Positions 1,889 to 62,441 of a DNA stretch of 64,000 nucleotides are shown here, one piece after another. A program made the translations under genes and the position numbers. The notes under the pieces are model-generated. The model ran no database searches. It worked only from the letters and a program-made list of their open reading frames with translations, and was not told the DNA's origin. The stretch comes from Minisyncoccota bacterium. GTDB lineage: Bacteria; Patescibacteriota; Minisyncoccia; Phycocordibacterales; Phycocordibacteraceae. Location: NCBI GenBank assembly GCA_018062765.1, contig JAGORR010000001.1, positions 356,930 to 420,929 of the forward strand, written 5' to 3'. Position 1 is the first letter of the stretch; every line of letters starts with the position of its first letter.

Positions 1889-4360
1889 ATGGCAAAAGCT
1901 AAGGAGCCTGAAGCAGGAGGGGAAGCCGCGCCGGTACAGCGCGTCATACAGCAGTCGATTACGGGCGAGATGCGCACGTCGTATCTCGACTACGCGATGT
2001 CCGTCATTACCTCGCGCGCCCTGCCTGATGTGCGTGATGGCCTCAAGCCGGTGCATCGCCGCATCCTCTTTACGATGCGCGAAGCAGGCCTCACGCCGTC
2101 CGCAAAGTTCCGTAAGTCAGCGACGGTGGTCGGAGACGTGCTCGGTAAGTATCACCCTCATGGCGACGTCGCCGTCTACGACTCCATGGCTAAGATGGCG
2201 CAGGATTTCTCATACCGGTATCCGCTTGTCATGGGTCAGGGAAACTTCGGATCCATCGATGGCGATTCTCCTGCTGCCTACCGTTATACGGAGGCGAAGA
2301 TGTCGCGCCTTTCCGACGAGCTTCTCGCAGACCTCGAGAAGGACACGGTGACCTGGGGCGCCAACTACGACAACACCCGACAGGAACCGAAGGTGCTTCC
2401 GGCGGCGCTCCCGAATCTTCTTTTGAACGGAACGTTGGGCATCGCTGTTGGTATGGCGACCAACATCCCGCCGCATAACCTGAAGGAGGTGGTAGATGCG
2501 ACCGTGCACCTTATCGATGAGCCGGAGGCGACAACCGATGACCTCCTGGGAATCGTGAAGGGTCCTGACTTCCCTTTGGGCGGCATCGCATTCAATCAGG
2601 CAGACATCAAGCACGCGTACGCTAACGGCAAGGGCGGCGTTGTCGTGCGCGGCGAGGCAGAGATTGTCGAGGACAAGAAGGGAAGCCACATCGTGATCAC
2701 TTCTATTCCGTATCGCGTTAACAAGGCAGAACTCATCACGCGCATCGCGGAGTTGGTGCAGGAGAAGAAGCTCGAGGGCGTCCGCGACCTTCGCGATGAG
2801 TCAGCGGCAGACATTCGCGTCGTTGTCGAGCTTAAGGGCACTGCACACCCGCAGGCGGTATTAAACGCTCTCTATAAGCACACGGAATTGGAGTCCACCT
2901 TCCACTACAACATGCTGGCGCTCGTCGACGGTGTGCCGCAGACGCTGTCCTTGAAGGGTATGCTCGAGCACTTCATCGAGCACCGCAGGGAGGTGGTGAA
3001 GCGTCGCACGGAGTACGACCTCCGGAAGGCCGAGGAGCGCGAGCATATCCTCTTGGGACTCTCGAAAGCGCTCGATCATATCGACGAGGTCATCGCCATA
3101 ATCAAGAAATCAGCGGACGTTGCTGCGGCTTCCTTGGCGCTCCAGAAGAAGTTCGCGTTCTCGCAGATACAGGCGGCAGCGATTCTCGAGATGCGCCTTT
3201 CGAAGCTTGCAGGCCTCGAGCGCAAGAAGATTGAGGATGAGCTTGCGGAGGTCCAGGCGCTCATCAAGAAGCTCAAAGAGATTCTCTCCTCCGCGAAGAA
3301 GATTCTCGCGGTGGTGAAGGCCGAGCTCGTCGCTATCGGCGAGAAGTACGGAGATGATCGCCGTACGAAGATCGTGAAGGGCGGAGTGAAGAACATCTCG
3401 GTCGAGGACATGGTTCCCGACGAGGAGAGCGTCTTGGTCATCACCGCAGGCGGCTATGTGAAGCGCACTAACCCATCAGAGTACAAGGCGCAGAAGCGCG
3501 GTGGCGTTGGTGTTATCGATATGTCTACCAAAGAAGAGGATGTGGTGACCCACTTCCTTTCTACTTCGGCGCACTCCGACCTTCTCTTCTTCACGAATCT
3601 CGGCAAGGCGTACCAGACCAAGATGTACGACATCCCAGAAGGAAGGCGCGCAACGAAGGGGAAGTCCATCATGAACTTCCTGCCTTTTGCAGCCGAGGAG
3701 AAGGCGACATCAGTGCTTGCGGTTCCAAAGGGCGCCGAGCGGGATGCCTTGTCTGTGTTCTTCGTGACCGAGCAGGGCGTCGTGAAGAAAGTTGCTGCCA
3801 AGTCATTCGCTGACGTGCGCAAGTCCGGCATCATCGCGATAAACCTCAAGGGCGGAGATAAGCTCGTCTCCGCGCACTTGGCCTCCGAGGGGGATACCAT
3901 TTCCATAGTGACCGCGAAGGGGCAATCGATACGGTTTGCGGCAGACGACGTGCGCGAGATGGGGCGCACGGCGGCGGGTGTGCGCGGCATGTCTGTGAAG
4001 AAGGGAGACTCGGTAGTTTCCGCAGAAGTCATTCCAGCTGCGGACGAGAAGCACGCAGCGCTCCTCGTCGTCATGGCCAAAGGGTATGGCAAACACACAT
4101 CTATCGATGAGTACAAAATTCAGGGACGCGGTGGATCGGGTATTAAGACCGCAGAGGTGACCGGCAAGACTGGTGAGATTATCGGCGCGAAGGTTCTCAC
4201 GGGTGAATTTAAGGAGGATGAAATCGTCGTCATCTCGAAGAAAGGCCAGGTCATCCGCACGAAGGTGGGGGAGATTTCGAGCCTTGGACGCGCGACGCAG
4301 GGGGTACGCATTATGAAGTTGCGAGAGGGAGATGCCATCGCCTCCATGGTGGCGTTGTAA
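1889..4360 (+). CDS. gyrA: DNA gyrase subunit A
   Basis: 823 aa. Hallmarks are [41 protein letters not shown] (catalytic Tyr region) and C-terminal beta-pinwheel repeats. Confidence 0.97.
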
Positions 4361-4581: not shown

Positions 4582-5238
4582 ATGGACCTCGATGCACTTA
4601 AGGAACGTTTCTTCAGGCTCTGGCATTTCTCAGACGCCAAGCAGGTCATCTGGAACGATGTGATCGCTCGTTATGGTGAGAAGCATCGCTTCTACCACAC
4701 GCTCGAACATATCGGCCACTGTCTCACGGAGTTCGATATCGCCCGCAAGTATCTCACGCTTCCGCGCGCGACCGACTGGGCGGCTATCGAGCACGCGCTC
4801 TGGTTCCACGACATCGTCTACAGCACGACGTCGTCCGGTAACGAGGAGAAGAGCGCGGAGTACGCCTATCGCGAGCTTCGCGGCATGGACATGCCGGTGC
4901 TGTTCTGTGATCAGGTGAAGCGGCTCATTCTCGTGACGAAGCTGCATCTGCCGCAGGCTCCCGACGAAGAGGTGATGTGCGACATCGACCTCGCCATCCT
5001 CGGGCAGCCTCGGCTGCGTTTCTCGCAGTACGAGGAATACATCAAGTTCGAATACGGAGTCGAGCCGCACGTTTTTTCCGCCGGCCGCGCGAAATTCCTC
5101 GTCGGTATGCTGAAGCGGCGACCCATCTTCTCGACGAGCCTCTTCCAACATGCGTACGAGCTCCATGCGCGCGCGAACATGGCTCTCTCCCTGCATCAGT
5201 GCGAGATAGATGTCGACATGCATGAGAATGCCGCCTGA
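4582..5238 (+). CDS. HD-domain metal-dependent phosphohydrolase-like protein
   Basis: ORF track 4540..5238. ATG 4582 is preceded by AAAGGAGGG. FYHTLEHIGH ... LWFHDIVY gives the H...HD pattern. Confidence 0.6.
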   Translation: MDLDALKERFFRLWHFSDAKQVIWNDVIARYGEKHRFYHTLEHIGHCLTEFDIARKYLTLPRATDWAAIEHALWFHDIVYSTTSSGNEEKSAEYAYRELRGMDMPVLFCDQVKRLILVTKLHLPQAPDEEVMCDIDLAILGQPRLRFSQYEEYIKFEYGVEPHVFSAGRAKFLVGMLKRRPIFSTSLFQHAYELHARANMALSLHQCEIDVDMHENAA

Positions 5239-5986: not shown

Positions 5987-6026
5987 TTGCTCCATCTCGG
6001 TGCCTATAGGCACCGAGATGGAGCAA
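5987..6026. repeat. perfect 40-nt palindrome, copy 1 (TTGCTCCATCTCGGTGCCTA|TAGGCACCGAGATGGAGCAA)
   Basis: Read directly. A second copy at 62402-62441 differs only by a compensatory T..A to C..G pair. Confidence 0.9.
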
Positions 6027-11974: not shown

Positions 11975-12128
11975 TGCTGGGGGAGGGCTTGGTCAGGCGC
12001 TCATTCGTCGCCGTCGCTCCTCACTCCGCCTGACCACCCTCGCGTGACAGACTTTGCTAAGTCTGTAGACCGCGCTCGGTTTCAAGTCTCCACCCCATGC
12101 CATTGCGGCTGCTTGCGCAGCCTTTATG
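11975..12128 (-). repeat. tRNA-trailer structured element, copy A (distal to tRNA-Leu-TAG)
   Basis: In tRNA orientation the order is:
- hairpin GGCTGC-gcaa-GCAGCC
- GGAGACTTGAA, antisense to the tRNA T-arm
- ACAGACTT-AGCA-AAGTCTGT
- GGTCAGGCG..(GAGTGAGG..GACG loop)..CGCCTGACC
- CAAGCCCTCCCCCAGCA, mimicking the tRNA 3' end. Confidence 0.8.
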
Positions 12129-12282
12129 TGCTGGGGAGGGCTTGGCGAAGCGTCTGCCGATCGTCGTCACTCCCGGCTCCGCTCGGCCCTGCTCGCACGA
12201 CACGGCGTGCTCGCCGCGTAGACCGTGCTTGCGTTCAAGTCTCCACCCATGCCTCTGCGCCAGGCTTGTGTCTGGTTACGTG
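12129..12282 (-). repeat. tRNA-trailer structured element, copy B (adjacent to tRNA-Leu-TAG)
   Basis: Also 154 nt. In tRNA orientation the order is:
- GCCT-ggcgcag-AGGC
- GGAGACTTGAAC
- ACGCGGCG-AGCA-CGCCGTGT
- GCCG-gGAGTGACGACGat-CGGC
- CCAAGCCCTCCCCAGCA. Confidence 0.8.
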
Positions 12283-12364
12283 TGCTGGGGAGGAGACTTG
12301 AACTCCTAACCCGTGAGGGACATGGTCCTAAGCCATGCGCGTATACCAATTCCGCCACCCCAGC
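12283..12364 (-). tRNA. tRNA-Leu (anticodon TAG), class II long variable arm
   Basis: Hand-folded. Acceptor GCTGGGG/CCCCAGC. Anticodon arm CATGG-cTTAGga-CCATG. T arm AGGAG-TTCAAGT-CTCCT. Discriminator A. No encoded CCA. Confidence 0.9.
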
Positions 12365-12416
12365 GTCCTTCACAGAATACTACGATTTGTTATATTGCGT
12401 TCTGTCGCGCCTATAG

Positions 12417-12489
12417 CTCAGTTGGTAGAGCAGATCCCTCTTAAGGATAAGGTCCCTGGTTCGAGCCCAGGTAGGCGCACTAACACGAA
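12417..12489 (+). tRNA. tRNA-Lys (anticodon CTT)
   Basis: Hand-folded. Acceptor GCGCCTA/TAGGCGC. Anticodon loop CTCTTAA. T arm CCTGG-TTCGAGC-CCAGG. Confidence 0.9.
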
Positions 12490-12639
12490 AAAGTCCTGGT
12501 CTGCACCAGGACTTTTCGGTTAGTGCGCGACGGAACCATGTTTTGCGAGCGCGCAAAACCGGTGAGCCAGGGTCGTAGCCTGAAGTGAGTGTCGACGAGC
12601 TTCAGGGCTATGACCACGTGCGAGGCACAGCGATGTTTT
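12490..12639 (+). repeat. tRNA-trailer structured element after tRNA-Lys
   Basis: Order:
- terminator-like H1 AAAAGTCCTGGT-ctgc-ACCAGGACTTTT
- TGCGCgaCGGAACCA (antisense-like to the tRNA 3' end)
- GTTTTGCG-AGCG-CGCAAAAC
- GGTCGTAGCCTGAAG-tgAGTGTCGACGag-CTTCAGGGCTATGACC
- ..GAGGCACA (compare tRNA end TAGGCGCA). Confidence 0.65.
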
Positions 12640-12725
12640 GTCTGCAGATAAAACCACGAGCCGGGATAGCGGAATTTCATGAATAATGACTAATGAAATA
12701 TCCGTGACCACAAATTGCAAAACGT

Positions 12726-13562
12726 TTAGATACCAGCGTACTTTCTGAATCGTCCAATTAGGTCAGTCGTGAGGGTCCCTGGCTTACCGCTGCCTACCTT
12801 ACGGTCATCGATGCGGATGACCGGCACTACGTCCTTGAACGACGAGGTGATAAACACCTCATCAGCGTTCCAAACGTCGTCCATGCTGACTGCGCGCTCT
12901 TCGGTCTTGTAACCGGCTTCAGCCGCAAGCTCTAGGATGACCTTCCTGGTAATGCCATGCAATACGCCCTCCTTCGCCGTGATAACCACTTTGTCCTTCA
13001 CGATGAACGCGTTTGATGTCGAGCACTCGAGCATGTTGCCGTTTGCGTGGTACAGGATTTCGAGTGCGTTCGCGGCTCGTCGCTTAGGCTGTAGCATCAC
13101 CGCATTTATGTAATTGATGGTCTTGTACTCCGGCATCATGCGCTGGTGCTCGCTCGTGATGAGAGAAACGCCATCAGTAAACACTTCGGGCGCAAGCACA
13201 AATGCCGGCTCGCAATTTATGAAGAATGTCTCGCGTCCAGGAACGTGCTCAAGCCCTCCGAGCGCTTCTCCGCCAGTAAGAACGACACGTACGGTTGCGC
13301 GCGTATCTGGTGAGTTGCGCTTGGCGATCTCTATCAGGGCAGCCTCAAACGCGTCGCGCTCGATAGGAATGGTAAGGGAGAGGGCAGCCGCTGACTTCAG
13401 TAACCGCTGCCAGTGGTCTTCGAAGCGAAACGGCTTTCCGCCAATGACCGTAATGCCCTCATAGACACCGTAGGAGCGTAGGACGCCGAGATCGAGGATG
13501 CCCACCTTCGCCTCCTGAAGCGGAAGAAATGCCCCATTAAGAAAGGCGACAGGCTCGTTCAT
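12726..13562 (-). CDS. class IV aminotransferase (branched-chain / D-amino-acid aminotransferase family)
   Basis: ORF track 12726..13700 runs into tRNA-Leu, so the start is taken at ATG 13562 (MNEPVAFLNG). Family pattern includes EYKTINY (PLP lysine region) and FITSSFKDVVPV. Confidence 0.85.
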   Translation of the reverse strand: MNEPVAFLNGAFLPLQEAKVGILDLGVLRSYGVYEGITVIGGKPFRFEDHWQRLLKSAAALSLTIPIERDAFEAALIEIAKRNSPDTRATVRVVLTGGEALGGLEHVPGRETFFINCEPAFVLAPEVFTDGVSLITSEHQRMMPEYKTINYINAVMLQPKRRAANALEILYHANGNMLECSTSNAFIVKDKVVITAKEGVLHGITRKVILELAAEAGYKTEERAVSMDDVWNADEVFITSSFKDVVPVIRIDDRKVGSGKPGTLTTDLIGRFRKYAGI

Positions 13563-13625
13563 CGGAGGATTATAACAGCAGTAATGTGTTATGGGTTTCT
13601 CGATATATGCTAGAACTAGTCGTAC

Positions 13626-13708
13626 GCCAGGGTGATGGAACGGTAGACATAGGGGACTTAAAATCCCCAGCTGTAACAAGCGTGTGGGTTCGACTCCCAC
13701 CCCTGGTA
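13626..13708 (+). tRNA. tRNA-Leu (anticodon TAA)
   Basis: Hand-folded. Acceptor GCCAGGG/CCCTGGT. Anticodon arm GGGGA-cTTAAaa-TCCCC. Long variable arm. T arm GTGGG-TTCGACT-CCCAC. Confidence 0.9.
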
Positions 13709-13738
13709 CTCGGTAGGGCGTGATAGGATTCTGCCATC

Positions 13739-13810
13739 GGCCCGATGGTGAAGTGGTAACACGGGGGACTGCAAATCCTCTATGCGCGGGTTCAATTCCC
13801 GCTCGGGCCT
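13739..13810 (+). tRNA. tRNA-Cys (anticodon GCA)
   Basis: Hand-folded. Acceptor GGCCCGA/TCGGGCC. Anticodon loop CTGCAAA. T arm GCGGG-TTCAATT-CCCGC. Confidence 0.9.
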
Positions 13811-13950
13811 CAAATTGGACGCGCAGCGTCTAATAGCGGGAATTGAAGGCCGTAGCTATATCGTGCGAGCACGCACGATTGCGAGGCGGGGTCACGAATA
13901 AGGTCTGCTCGACGGAGCAGACCTTATTCGTGACCAGTACCGCTCTGTCT
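13811..13950 (+). repeat. tRNA-trailer structured element after tRNA-Cys
   Basis: Order:
- GACG-cgcag-CGTC
- AGCGGGAATTGAA, an exact antisense of the tRNA-Cys segment TTCAATTCCCGCT
- ATCGTGCG-AGCA-CGCACGAT
- 20-bp hairpin GTCACGAATAAGGTCTGCTC-GACG-GAGCAGACCTTATTCGTGAC
- CAGTACCGCTCTGTCT (compare tRNA CAATTCCCGCTCGGGCCT). Confidence 0.75.
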
Positions 13951-22100: not shown

Positions 22101-22126
22101 CGATAGCCAGCAGCTGCTGGCTATCG
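22101..22126 (+). terminator. terminator hairpin
   Basis: CGATAGCCAGC-agct-GCTGGCTATCG followed by tcTTTaT. Confidence 0.6.
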
Positions 22127-22138
22127 TCTTTATATGGG

Positions 22139-22239
22139 TGCGGCTCCCAGGTGGTCACAAATACTTCCGCGTCGACACTTGGAAGTTTCGCGACCCCGCC
22201 AAAAAGGAAAAACCTGGAGCAGTCCAGGTTTTTCCTTTT
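22139..22239 (-). repeat. tRNA-trailer structured element after tRNA-Trp (short form, no AGCA hairpin)
   Basis: In tRNA orientation the order is:
- GGAAAAACCTGGA-ctgc-TCCAGGTTTTTCC then TTTTT
- TGGCGGGG (antisense to tRNA end GCCCGCCA)
- GGTC..CTTCC-aAGTGTCGACGc-GGAAG..GACC
- ACCTGGGAGCCGCA (compare tRNA CTACTGGGCCCGCCA). Confidence 0.65.
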
Positions 22240-22313
22240 TGGCGGGCCCAGTAGGAATCGGACCTACGCTAACGGTTTTGGAGACCGTTGTACTACCACT
22301 ATACGATGGACCC
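22240..22313 (-). tRNA. tRNA-Trp (anticodon CCA), CCA end encoded
   Basis: Hand-folded. Acceptor GGGTCCA/TGGGCCC. Anticodon arm ACGGT-cTCCAaa-ACCGT. T arm GTAGG-TCCGATT-CCTAC. Confidence 0.88.
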
Positions 22314-24839: not shown

Positions 24840-25687
24840 ACAAGCGCAGAAAGCTTTCGAAGCCACGCCTTCTGACGGCGCGCATACTGCCATAGCTTCG
24901 CGTTAAGGGAAGGGAGAAGTGATGCTTCCTCGCGCTCACCACGCAGATACTCGCCGACAATGCGGTACTCAAGTCCGAGCTCGTTAAGGCGTGCATCACC
25001 CACGCGCTCGCGTGTTCGCCGTACTTCCTCGATGAGTCCCTTCTCGAGCGCCTCCTCAAGACGCGCCTCTATGCGAGGCTTCAATTCCTCAGCCTCCGGG
25101 TTCAGCACTATCCATTCGACTTCGTACTTCTCGGTCAGTGATTCGCGCTCAGGCACCGAGCCCTTGGCTTCGATGATTTCCAGAGCGCGCAAGAGCCGAC
25201 GGCGATTCTTTGGGTCAAGCTCCACAGCTCGCCGCGGGTCTAGTTTCTGAAGTCTAGCGAAGAGTTCTTCGCTAGAAACATCGGCCAGTTCTGACTGAAG
25301 CGCTGGGTTTGTGGGAACTGCTTCTGGTATGCCGCGCAGAAGCGCGTCGAAATAGAAGTGCGTGCCGCCGGCAAGAATTGGAATCTTCCCTCGCGCGTGG
25401 ATATCTTCAATAAAACGCGTCGCATCATCCCGAAAGTCGCCGGCGCTGTAGGAGTCCTCCGGTTCCCGTATGTCGATGAGGTGATGGGGAACGCCACGCA
25501 TCTCTTCCGGCCGAATCTTTTCCGTGCCGATATCAAGCGTTCGATAGACTTGGCGTGAATCGACGGAAATGATTTCGCCCCCTCTCTTAAGAGCTTCATC
25601 GACTGCGCGCGCGGTCTTGCCGCTTGCGGTCGGACCCGCAACGAGAATAAGCCGTATTTTGGCGCTCATAGGGCGAAATGCTATCAT
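24836..25687 (-). CDS. miaA: tRNA dimethylallyltransferase
   Basis: 283 aa. P-loop VAGPTASGKT. Also ISVDSRQVYRTLDIGTEK and GVPHHLID. Confidence 0.93.
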   Translation of the reverse strand: MIAFRPMSAKIRLILVAGPTASGKTARAVDEALKRGGEIISVDSRQVYRTLDIGTEKIRPEEMRGVPHHLIDIREPEDSYSAGDFRDDATRFIEDIHARGKIPILAGGTHFYFDALLRGIPEAVPTNPALQSELADVSSEELFARLQKLDPRRAVELDPKNRRRLLRALEIIEAKGSVPERESLTEKYEVEWIVLNPEAEELKPRIEARLEEALEKGLIEEVRRTRERVGDARLNELGLEYRIVGEYLRGEREEASLLPSLNAKLWQYARRQKAWLRKLSALV

Positions 25688-28196: not shown

Positions 28197-28362
28197 CAAA
28201 GCGCGAAGCGCGCATGGTCGGGGAGTACCCTGCCTGCGCAGGGTACGTGAGAGACTTGAACGCCGGAGCGATGATTCGTCAGCAGACGAATCCGCGAGGC
28301 AAGGCTATGAAAATTCTCGAGTGACGGCGAGAGAATTATTCCTGGCCAAGCCTTCCCCGGCA
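28197..28362 (+). repeat. tRNA-trailer structured element, copy 1 after tRNA-Leu-CAA
   Basis: Order:
- TACCCTG-cctgcg-CAGGGTA
- GAGAGACTTGAAC, a 13-nt exact antisense of the tRNA T-arm
- GATTCGTC-AGCA-GACGAATC
- AATTCTC-gAGTGACGGCg-GAGAATT
- CCAAGCCTTCCCCGGCA (mimic). Confidence 0.8.
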
Positions 28363-28509
28363 CATGAAGCACGCGCAGCGTGCGAAGGGCTCGTGGGTGG
28401 GACTTGAACGCCGGAGCGATGCTTCATCAGCAGATGAAGCCGTGAGCTGGGGTCGCGGAAAATGCCATGTGACGACATGGCATTTATTCGCGACCAAGCC
28501 ACCCCGGCA
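28363..28509 (+). repeat. tRNA-trailer structured element, copy 2 after tRNA-Leu-CAA
   Basis: Order:
- GCACG-cgcag-CGTGC
- GGGTGGGACTTGAAC
- GCTTCATC-AGCA-GATGAAGC
- GGTCGCG..AAATGCCATGT-GACG-ACATGGCATTT..CGCGACC
- AAGCCACCCCGGCA. Confidence 0.8.
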
Positions 28510-39443: not shown

Positions 39444-39538
39444 CCAACTTGAGCGAGGTTCTTGCGTCCGAGACGCATTGAACTAAGCCAAGACTCCATT
39501 CAGAAAAGGCATACCGGCTGAGAGTCGCATTCAGAACG

Positions 39539-39562
39539 AAAAACCGCCCTAGGGCGGTTTTT
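39539..39562 (+). terminator. intrinsic terminator
   Basis: AAAAACCGCCC-tag-GGCGGTTTTT. Confidence 0.75.
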
Positions 39563-39585
39563 CGTTTGCGCGTTATAATTGGATT

Positions 39586-62401: not shown

Positions 62402-62441
62402 TTGCTCCATCCCGGTGCCTATAGGCACCGGGATGGAGCAA
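62402..62441. repeat. perfect 40-nt palindrome, copy 2 (TTGCTCCATCCCGGTGCCTA|TAGGCACCGGGATGGAGCAA)
   Basis: Read directly. It differs from copy 1 (5987-6026) only at the symmetric positions T/A to C/G. Confidence 0.9.

Follow-up and report, generated by a model that had tools for sequence, protein, structure and literature searches.

Behind a tRNA-Trp gene of a Minisyncoccota bacterium lies a strongly folded trailer of about 100 nt, and the question raised by this locus is whether the trailer is an ordinary transcription terminator or a copy of something more widespread. It occupies positions 22139-22239 of the window, by which we mean the whole 64,000-nt stretch of contig JAGORR010000001.1 (GenBank assembly GCA_018062765.1) analysed here, a housekeeping stretch of a Patescibacteria chromosome that carries gyrA, infB, clpB, topA, uvrABC, miaA, tgt, dprA and pilins of the type IV secretion system (T4SS) type. 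The identical Trp-locus sequence is present in two other assemblies. Our results make it very probable that the Trp trailer belongs, as a decayed copy, to a family of structured non-coding elements located 3' of Patescibacteria tRNA genes, of tmRNA and of a few protein genes. An earlier note, made from the letters alone, had described the trailer as a minimal version of an element seen behind other tRNAs of the window, and its individual claims are taken up below with the results that bear on them.

The tRNA-Trp gene (anticodon CCA) lies on the minus strand at 22240-22313 and encodes its own CCA (ARAGORN; Rfam RF00005, 62.7 bits). Read in tRNA sense, the trailer consists of AAAA GGAAAAACCTGGA ctgc TCCAGGTTTTTCC TTTT TGGCGGG G TCGCGAAACTTCC aagtgtcgacgc GGAAGTATTTGTGACC ACCTGGGAGCCGCA. 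A repeat finder reported an inverted repeat with two arms of 24 nt each, 100% complementary around a loop of 4 nt, all on the minus strand. The left arm (22223-22246), also recovered in the predicted folds, holds the last 7 nt of the tRNA, CCCGCCA, followed by AAAA and the 5' arm GGAAAAACCTGGA of a hairpin termed H1; the tetraloop CTGC of this 5' hairpin of the element occupies 22219-22222; and the right arm (22195-22218) holds the 3' arm TCCAGGTTTTTCC of H1, TTTT and an antisense block, TGGCGGG, which complements CCCGCCA with the encoded CCA included. With arms of this length and so short a loop, the Trp hairpin thus spans from CCCGCCA of the tRNA to the antisense TGGCGGG. The 13-bp H1, GGAAAAACCTGGA-ctgc-TCCAGGTTTTTCC followed by TTTTT, had been noticed before, as had the complementarity of TGGCGGGG to GCCCGCCA with a single mismatch at the last G; both are present in the sequence, and the real repeat is longer than H1, extending into the tRNA end. 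Next after the repeat comes H3, a GTGTCGACG-loop hairpin at 22153-22195 on the minus strand (5' strand GGTCGCGAAACTTCC at 22181-22195, loop AAGTGTCGACGC at 22169-22180, 3' strand GGAAGTATTTGTGACC at 22153-22168), whose lower stem GGUCGCG/UGUGACC contains G.U pairs and a bulged A. The minimum-energy structure of the trailer computed with RNAfold comprises the long hairpin and H3 (-51.7 kcal/mol, z -5.4, for the trailer alone; z -7.5 for tRNA-Trp plus trailer), and H3, proposed at this place by the earlier note, is further based on alignment to a covariance model (CM) and on covariation across the family. Beyond the trailer, a terminator at 22101-22126 belongs to a convergent open reading frame (ORF) of 66 aa without a Pfam match.

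The model that links this trailer to others, termed R1, was built from 11 cores of the window and of relatives, aligned with MAFFT and with the Trp copy left out. RNAalifold predicted two hairpins in this seed, P2 and H3, with compensatory changes in 24 of 27 pairs. Run with filters off, R1 recovered exactly eight sites in the window, all behind tRNAs, namely seven seed or seed-like cores at 55-96 bits and the Trp copy at 33.1 bits. The Trp match (22150-22226, minus strand, P2 positions missing; E 1.7e-5 for the window, 3.3e-4 for 1.26 Mb, 7.4e-8 for the local sequence) begins 14 nt past the tRNA on the same strand; the next-best window match had 15.8 bits, and on its opposite strand the Trp site scored 9.4 bits. 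The model aligned H3 of the Trp copy fully and skipped P2, so the proposed membership in the trailer family survived the structure-aware alignment that the earlier note had named as the check on it, and the copy is recognised as a shortened family member by a model to which it had not contributed.

These results bear directly on the simplest explanation, an ordinary intrinsic terminator behind tRNA-Trp accompanied by a chance hairpin. H1 does combine a GC/AT stem with a T-run, and the downstream gene is convergent, as would suit a terminator. However, the 24-bp perfect repeat takes in the tRNA end, the CM match is significant, H3 is common to about 100 covarying units, and the Trp units of relatives' and metagenome loci L013, L038 and L151 align with the Trp copy. 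The CM match, the covariation and the orthologous Trp units refute this explanation, to which we assign a negligible probability. A simple terminator consensus scan left H1 unflagged, since inside the 24-bp stem the T-run is paired with the A-run. Of the suggestion that H1 is an intrinsic terminator, the descriptive half stands, the 13-bp stem and TTTTT; from its recurrence in related units, H1 is better read as a conserved element module with an A-rich arm, a CUGC loop and a U-rich arm than as a host terminator.

Comparison with relatives indicates what the Trp copy lacks. In the CM alignment, 13 nt stand in place of 29 model positions corresponding to a linker GCCGGAGC, P2 and GCGAGGC; the absence of P2, the hairpin with the AGCA loop, had been correctly seen and is confirmed both by this alignment and by that to relatives. 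Against L013, L038 and L151, whose Trp units are of its own class, the Trp copy shows a gap of ~41 nt between CTTT and GGCGGG GTCGCG, a position filled in all three by linker, P2 and GCGAGGC, and the gap is flanked by a repeated GCGGG/GGGG motif. The repeated (G)CGGG motif on both sides of the gap makes deletion the most likely way in which the Trp copy lost P2, and the copy reads as a decayed unit of the short class (described below) in which P2 is gone and H3 is kept. The trailer is accordingly better described as a deletion derivative than as a minimal version, given that short-class Trp units elsewhere keep all three parts. P2 is missing in other units too (L003, 4321-4383).

The end of the trailer also calls for a different reading. 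The last segment, ACCTGGGAGCCGCA (22139-22152, minus strand), had been taken as a mimic of the tRNA 3' end; in a cognate test it scored 6 against a mean of 5.6 for non-cognate tRNA ends, and 40% of these controls equalled it, so that the mimicry is not upheld. Within it, GGGAGCCGCA repeats, letter for letter, the antisense-plus-linker with which the L013 Trp unit starts; MAFFT aligned it with the start of the second unit in L038, and arrays with a 3'-truncated last unit occur elsewhere (L131, L200). Judging by these matches, 22139-22152 is more probably a stub left by a second, truncated unit, with antisense remnant and linker GGGAGCCGCA in its first ~11 nt. The conserved core previously suggested, consisting of antisense block, H3 and mimic, stands for its first two parts only. 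Family-wide, the antisense arm and H3 are the most conserved parts and the direct copy of the gene end is the least conserved, and the core is therefore redefined, from the alignments, as hairpin, antisense arm and H3.

Within the window, trailers of this kind are found behind every tRNA with room for one except Gln, that is, behind Trp, Leu-tag, Lys, Cys and Leu-caa. Specifically, tRNA-Leu(tag) is followed on the minus strand by two cores, unit 1 at 12141-12238 (R1 73 bits) and unit 2 at 11988-12085 (65.2 bits). The remaining cores lie on the plus strand: two behind tRNA-Lys(ctt), unit 1 at 12523-12618 (79.6 bits; short class with the CTGC hairpin) and unit 2 at 12619-12712 (55.4 bits); one behind tRNA-Cys(gca) at 13843-13938 (88.3 bits); and two behind tRNA-Leu(caa), unit 1 at 28256-28350 (96.3 bits) and unit 2 at 28404-28498 (91.6 bits). 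Sequence comparison bears out that the Lys and Trp trailers have the CTGC loop in common. The arms of Leu(caa) unit 2 fit a Leu(taa)-type T-arm as in L004 and not the local tRNA, indicating that units can sit behind a related non-cognate tRNA. The trailer of tRNA-Gln (39447-39570) gave no R1 match; in it, CCGGCTGAGAGTCGCATTC, which has an ordinary terminator after it, resembles the 3' part of tRNA-Gln in reverse complement, a resemblance on which this trailer may be regarded as a decayed unit.

Outside the window, we examined the infB region of 54 metagenome-assembled genomes of Paceibacteria, Parcubacteria or Kaiserbacteria type, in which the order infB-rbfA-tRNA-Cys-Leu-Lys-Leu is preserved. 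R1 found 34 units in these loci and the window together, of which 32 lie on the same strand as a tRNA and 14-217 nt downstream of it, and two lie at locus edges; 27 loci from phyla other than Patescibacteria yielded no R1 match. Presence and copy number vary among relatives. R1 matched only 14 of the 54 loci, a trailer element of either core type (see below) stands behind about 7 of 25 Trp genes, and the closest relative, L003 (IF-2 identity 86%), differs from the window in unit numbers behind Cys, Lys and Leu-tag. A further set came from scanning metagenomes for a 19-nt core motif. Among the matches listed, 80 loci were read, most of which hold true units, and R1 recognised at least 71, 54 of them behind tRNAs of 24 anticodon types, one behind tmRNA and some behind protein genes. 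Beyond the window, R1 thus identifies at least about 100 units in genomes and metagenomes of Paceibacteria/Parcubacteria type, behind tRNAs of at least 24 anticodon types, and every located unit lies on the strand of its upstream gene; position and orientation are strict.

Several observations accompany this survey. Units of the same architecture stand behind genes other than tRNAs at L189 1478-1574, L207 4435-4560, L155 5709-5802 and L205 890-967, with tmRNA among the hosts; in L189 and L207 the unit follows the rpsI stop codon, and in L155 it follows a protein gene of zinc-finger type, the last ~65 nt of which recur, in diverged form, after the core. A second core type (GTTGCGAGC ... CCGCAACGTGTAC ... 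small hairpin) occurs in Trp and LeuTAA trailers of L017, L023, L027, L028 and L046; it is flanked by the same kind of antisense arm and direct copy and is not detected by R1. At L050, a long palindrome takes in the last 10 nt of a minus-strand tRNA-Tyr (at 3898) with no core after it, a possible precursor or remnant. The units of L161 (~4700-4800) and L193 (~2180-2280) are both preceded by a common conserved, unannotated sequence, ..CCAGAACCG.GAAAG..TTTTAGGCGGTTC.ATG.., which may be a non-coding RNA gene missed by Rfam. The tRNA genes themselves invert in place: between window positions 12282-13811 and the corresponding loci L003-L055, the order infB-rbfA-Cys-LeuTAA-Lys-LeuTAG is unchanged, Cys and LeuTAA are inverted in the window relative to more than 40 relatives, and the strand of Lys varies by genome.

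The fold of the element is conserved and strand-specific. A complete unit consists of a hairpin with a CUGC loop, the antisense arm, the linker GCCGGAGC with P2 (AGCA loop), GCGAGGC with H3, and the direct copy. In the family, H3 has a lower stem GGUCGCG/CGUGACC with a conserved G.U pair and a loop GAGYGACGRCGA, and the R1 loop pattern G(A)GYGWCGRCG is also matched by the Trp copy. Across the 71 metagenome units, 96.2% of cells are paired, compared with 74.9% in shuffles and 29-48% with slid partners, and double changes occur in 25 of 27 pairs, counts that lean towards structure since these alignments were fitted to the model; the MAFFT seed alignment gives the same covariation pattern. One H3 pair is G.U in 64 of 70 metagenome sequences. 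In 43 of about 105 family units, the hairpin immediately upstream of the core has CTGC as its loop. Kissing between this CUGC loop and the AGCA loop of P2 was considered and rejected: the two do not covary, CTGC occurring with AGCA, AGTA, AGAA and AGCT alike.

Two classes of unit differ in how they are joined to the gene. In the long class, the order after the tRNA is a small hairpin, an arm that complements the acceptor 3' strand plus the discriminator, the CUGC hairpin, and an arm antisense to the T-loop and the T-stem 3' strand; expressed in tRNA positions, the antisense arm is the reverse complement of 66-73+, interrupted by the CUGC hairpin, and then that of 54-65, after which come linker, P2, GCGAGGC and H3. 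The hairpin lies at the 65|66 boundary in all long-class units, and the reverse complement of the guide agrees with tRNA positions 54-64 at 97% of positions (37 units), mismatches piling up at 65. The direct copy of this class has a fixed junction: it begins exactly at C56 of the T-loop (...GTGAC|C56) and often runs on through the gene's own trailer, exact copies from C56 reaching 76 nt with that trailer included. In the short class, found behind Lys, Trp, Ala, Arg, Ile and Val genes, the CUGC hairpin comes directly after the tRNA end and has conserved A-rich and U-rich arms (about AAAGACAGAAAA ... UUUUCUGCUUU), and 5-8 nt of antisense to the tRNA end, CCA included where encoded, extend it to stems of 22-26 bp. 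The arms are derived from the gene that the unit follows: when scored for cognate specificity, defined as beating 95% of non-cognate tRNA ends, 22 of 32 units qualified by their antisense arm and 17 of 32 by their direct copy.

Such an anatomy could be taken to describe small-RNA genes in their own right, each imitating the top half of the tRNA next to it. The arm would pair with the direct copy as an acceptor/T-stem helix, the CUGC hairpin would replace the D and anticodon arms, the core would cap the T stem, and RNase P and 3' processing would release an RNA acting in trans as decoy, sensor or primer. The L171 unit on its own folds exactly in this manner, into a helix of acceptor/T-stem type that is capped by the P2/H3 core and has the CUGC hairpin at its junction (-87 kcal/mol, z -7.4), and the hairpin at 65|66 in all long-class units agrees with it. 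An orphan unit, L150 7891-7986, has acceptor-like arms ending in GCCA and no tRNA upstream, and some direct copies have a CCA that the gene lacks. However, arm and copy do not covary independently of the tRNA: the arm agrees only with the tRNA at 90 positions, the copy alone does so at 32, and arm and copy agree against the tRNA at 2, which rejects independent compensatory evolution of arm and copy. The duplex-energy test for arm:copy was weak as well (mean z -0.6 versus -2.2 for arm:tRNA). Moreover, old units show a decayed direct copy, a closing helix is almost lacking in the short class, the Trp copy included, and the CCA cases are not clearly above chance, leaving the small-RNA reading distinctly unlikely. 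Wobble-compatible mismatches in the arm:tRNA helix (6 versus 5) were uninformative as to the strand. In the minimum-energy structure of a complete unit folded together with the tRNA, the whole unit is nested inside the T-loop.

The direct copies that continue with CCA although the gene encodes none are those of L017/L023 Cys, L175 LeuTAG, L154 LeuTAA and L203 Ser. As a sign of copying from mature tRNA, CCA endings were discarded, with ~5 of 20 cases and no clear excess over chance. Likewise, a primer-binding site antisense to mature tRNA with CCA was rejected because the arm tracks the genomic trailer in genes without encoded CCA, as in the L046 Trp unit.

A direct repeat of the tRNA 3' part recalls integrative elements at tRNA genes, and the units could be relics of site-specific integration, formed by accretion of attachment (att) sites as in cis-mobilizable elements, the direct copy being the displaced original tRNA end. 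The T-loop is reported to be a classical crossover sublocation of integrases (Williams 2002). In keeping with such an origin, the repeat begins in the T-loop and flanks the insert family-wide (it is not upheld at the Trp copy), the tRNA is left intact, the distal copy decays faster than the remainder of the unit, and units accrete in tandem arrays. Yet no integrase was found nearby by Pfam among about 40 window ORFs, the elements measure just 100-200 nt, and the proximal and distal copies share the gene's own trailer, which indicates that the repeat was templated locally and not brought in. An extra inverted copy carrying a hairpin at 65|66 and a covarying core would also go unexplained. In IMG/VR, the core pattern was matched 47 times, about the chance expectation, and the one real unit contig, L085, is classed as viral and carries a unit array (2850-3319) beside the housekeeping genes serine acetyltransferase, galE and cytidine deaminase; a viral origin is rejected on these grounds. 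We consider integration relics very improbable.

A role in the service of the host deserves more weight, although it too is rather unlikely. The units would then be tRNA 3'-end cassettes whose long hairpin, including the tRNA end, acts as terminator and as a processing site of RNase III type (or assisted by RNase P). The need would arise from a reduced RNase set, H3 and P2 would bind a processing or chaperone protein, and direct copies would be by-products of tandem duplication. Short-class stems of 22-26 bp with conserved A-rich and U-rich arms, starting exactly at the tRNA end with the encoded CCA, fit such a role, and complementarity of the arm to the tRNA is kept far better than identity of the direct copy. 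There is also a precedent for special handling of a terminator placed after CCA: according to a study of E. coli leuX (PMC2811032), the terminator directly after CCA is removed by PNPase or RNase P. However, most orthologous tRNAs do without the element (~18 of 25 Trp genes; 40 of 54 loci without an R1 match), and protein genes also carry units. Tandem and truncated units and exact duplications of gene ends are unexpected for a processing signal, and the long-class pairing with T-loop and T-stem would unfold the tRNA.

The family is apparently undescribed. We found no matching description of the element in the literature, and Rfam 15, searched at gathering score or E<=5, returned only tRNAs for the window trailers and only tRNA, tmRNA and rRNA for the other loci. 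The element shares single features with several known systems and fails a defining feature of each testable one. It differs from integrative elements at tRNA genes by the missing integrase, its size, the additional inverted copy with hairpin, the local trailer in both copies and the covarying core. REP/BIME, MITE and PATE-type repeats resemble it in being short, structured and non-coding, in standing just after genes or terminators, and in occurring in arrays and variable copy number; here, in contrast, the arms come from the particular upstream gene instead of fixed terminal repeats, orientation is strict, no near-identical copies per genome occur (maximum core identity within a contig 0.76), and no RAYT or TnpA partner was seen. 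For a MITE or insertion sequence (IS) derivative, which should show near-identical copies, fixed terminal inverted repeats and a short target duplication, we find the same 0.76 identity and tRNA-specific arms.

Among RNA-based systems, class C group II introns insert after terminator hairpins, and their exon- and intron-binding sites (EBS/IBS) are matched here by an internal segment complementary to upstream sequence at a position after a gene-end hairpin; the units nevertheless have a core of only ~95 nt, no domain V/VI, no Rfam intron match (E<=5), no reverse-transcriptase ORF, and a duplicated target. The units may resemble the non-coding RNA of retrons (msr-msd) in their a1/a2-like flanking arms around a short and a long hairpin and in a conserved AGC after the 5' arm. 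They differ from it in being present in many copies per genome, in taking their arms from the neighbouring tRNA end and in having no adjacent reverse transcriptase; no RVT domain was found by Pfam in the about 40 window ORFs tested, and the ORF downstream of the Trp copy is the convergent one of 66 aa. In folded single-strand recombination sites such as CTX-phi attP and integron attC, as in the units, a structured spacer lies between inverted segments that form a duplex copy of the target site; the structure is strand-specific, tolerates G.T pairs and occurs in arrays. For the units, however, no Xer or IntI partner was identified, the arms vary by target gene, and the core sequence is conserved. 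Finally, tRNA-like RNAs and permuted or two-piece tRNA and tmRNA genes similarly form an acceptor/T-stem-like helix from distant segments, with a hairpin replacing the tRNA body, and permuted genes share the order 3' part - loop - 5'-like strand. The units differ in lacking a T-loop, because the T-loop segment is paired, and tRNA and tmRNA models detect only the real genes.

In our best reading of the mechanism, the units would insert duplicatively, probably as selfish elements, and would restore the 3' end of each gene into which they insert; such rebuilding upon insertion would explain why an inverted and a direct copy occur together. The folded form would be one strand in tRNA sense, in the simplest case an RNA made by read-through from the tRNA promoter, for which the strand-specific covariation and the conserved G.U pair provide indirect support. 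In the precursor, the long hairpin including the tRNA end would serve as terminator and as a double-strand processing structure, and H3, with or without P2, would be a putative binding module for a trans-acting protein. This mechanism, duplicative and selfish insertion with a tRNA-sense fold, is offered tentatively and with acknowledged doubt; the statement taken whole, with family, anatomy and mechanism together, is one that we hold at somewhat below even confidence.

Several points weigh against it. Neither a transposase nor a reverse transcriptase or recombinase was found by Pfam among the about 40 window ORFs. Core identity within a contig never exceeds 76%, and near-identical cores that would indicate recent intragenomic transposition were not found. 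Insertion does not explain how units gain arms for a new tRNA. Placed upstream of the core, the short-class hairpin has the look of a strong intrinsic terminator and so speaks against the core being efficiently co-transcribed; the G.U pair, as G.T, also fits folded single-stranded DNA. The leaning of the model-fitted metagenome alignments and the scarcity of independent compensatory change between arm and copy (2 cases versus 90) belong on the same side.

A more specific form of the insertion reading is that the units are a non-autonomous mobile element whose own antisense arm, as RNA or as folded single-stranded DNA, pairs with a highly expressed gene in its 3' part and directs insertion there. 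Long-class units would enter tRNA genes at the fixed point T55|C56 and short-class units at the extreme 3' end, the interrupted gene end being rebuilt by the insertion itself. We regard this guided version as unlikely; if it were true, it would represent a guide-bearing, SINE-like or hairpin-guided insertion system with its partner protein encoded elsewhere in Patescibacteria genomes.

Two further repeats in the window concern other sequences. A 40-nt perfect palindrome, TTGCTCCATCTCGGTGCCTATAGGCACCGAGATGGAGCAA, is present in two copies, 95% identical and 56 kb apart (5987-6026 and 62402-62441), and a 23-mer inside the miaA ORF (25066-25088) is 91% identical to the T-arm of tRNA-Cys, probably by chance.

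Patescibacteria genomes are very small, yet this window devotes ~1.2 kb to eight folded units, and members of the family are common in metagenomes from groundwater, soil and sediment. For annotation, the units account for long 'empty' spacers behind tRNA genes, and duplicated tRNA ends at these places should not be taken for prophage att sites. Three features call for a specific mechanism: the arm, carried systematically, that is antisense to the 3' half of the tRNA; the hairpin placed exactly at this arm's acceptor/T-stem boundary; and the copy that starts exactly from C56. It may be a new way in which bacteria whose RNase set is reduced make or control the 3' ends of tRNAs or, alternatively, a new target-guided mechanism of insertion, and the covariance model and junction rules make this question testable with metatranscriptomes and complete genomes.

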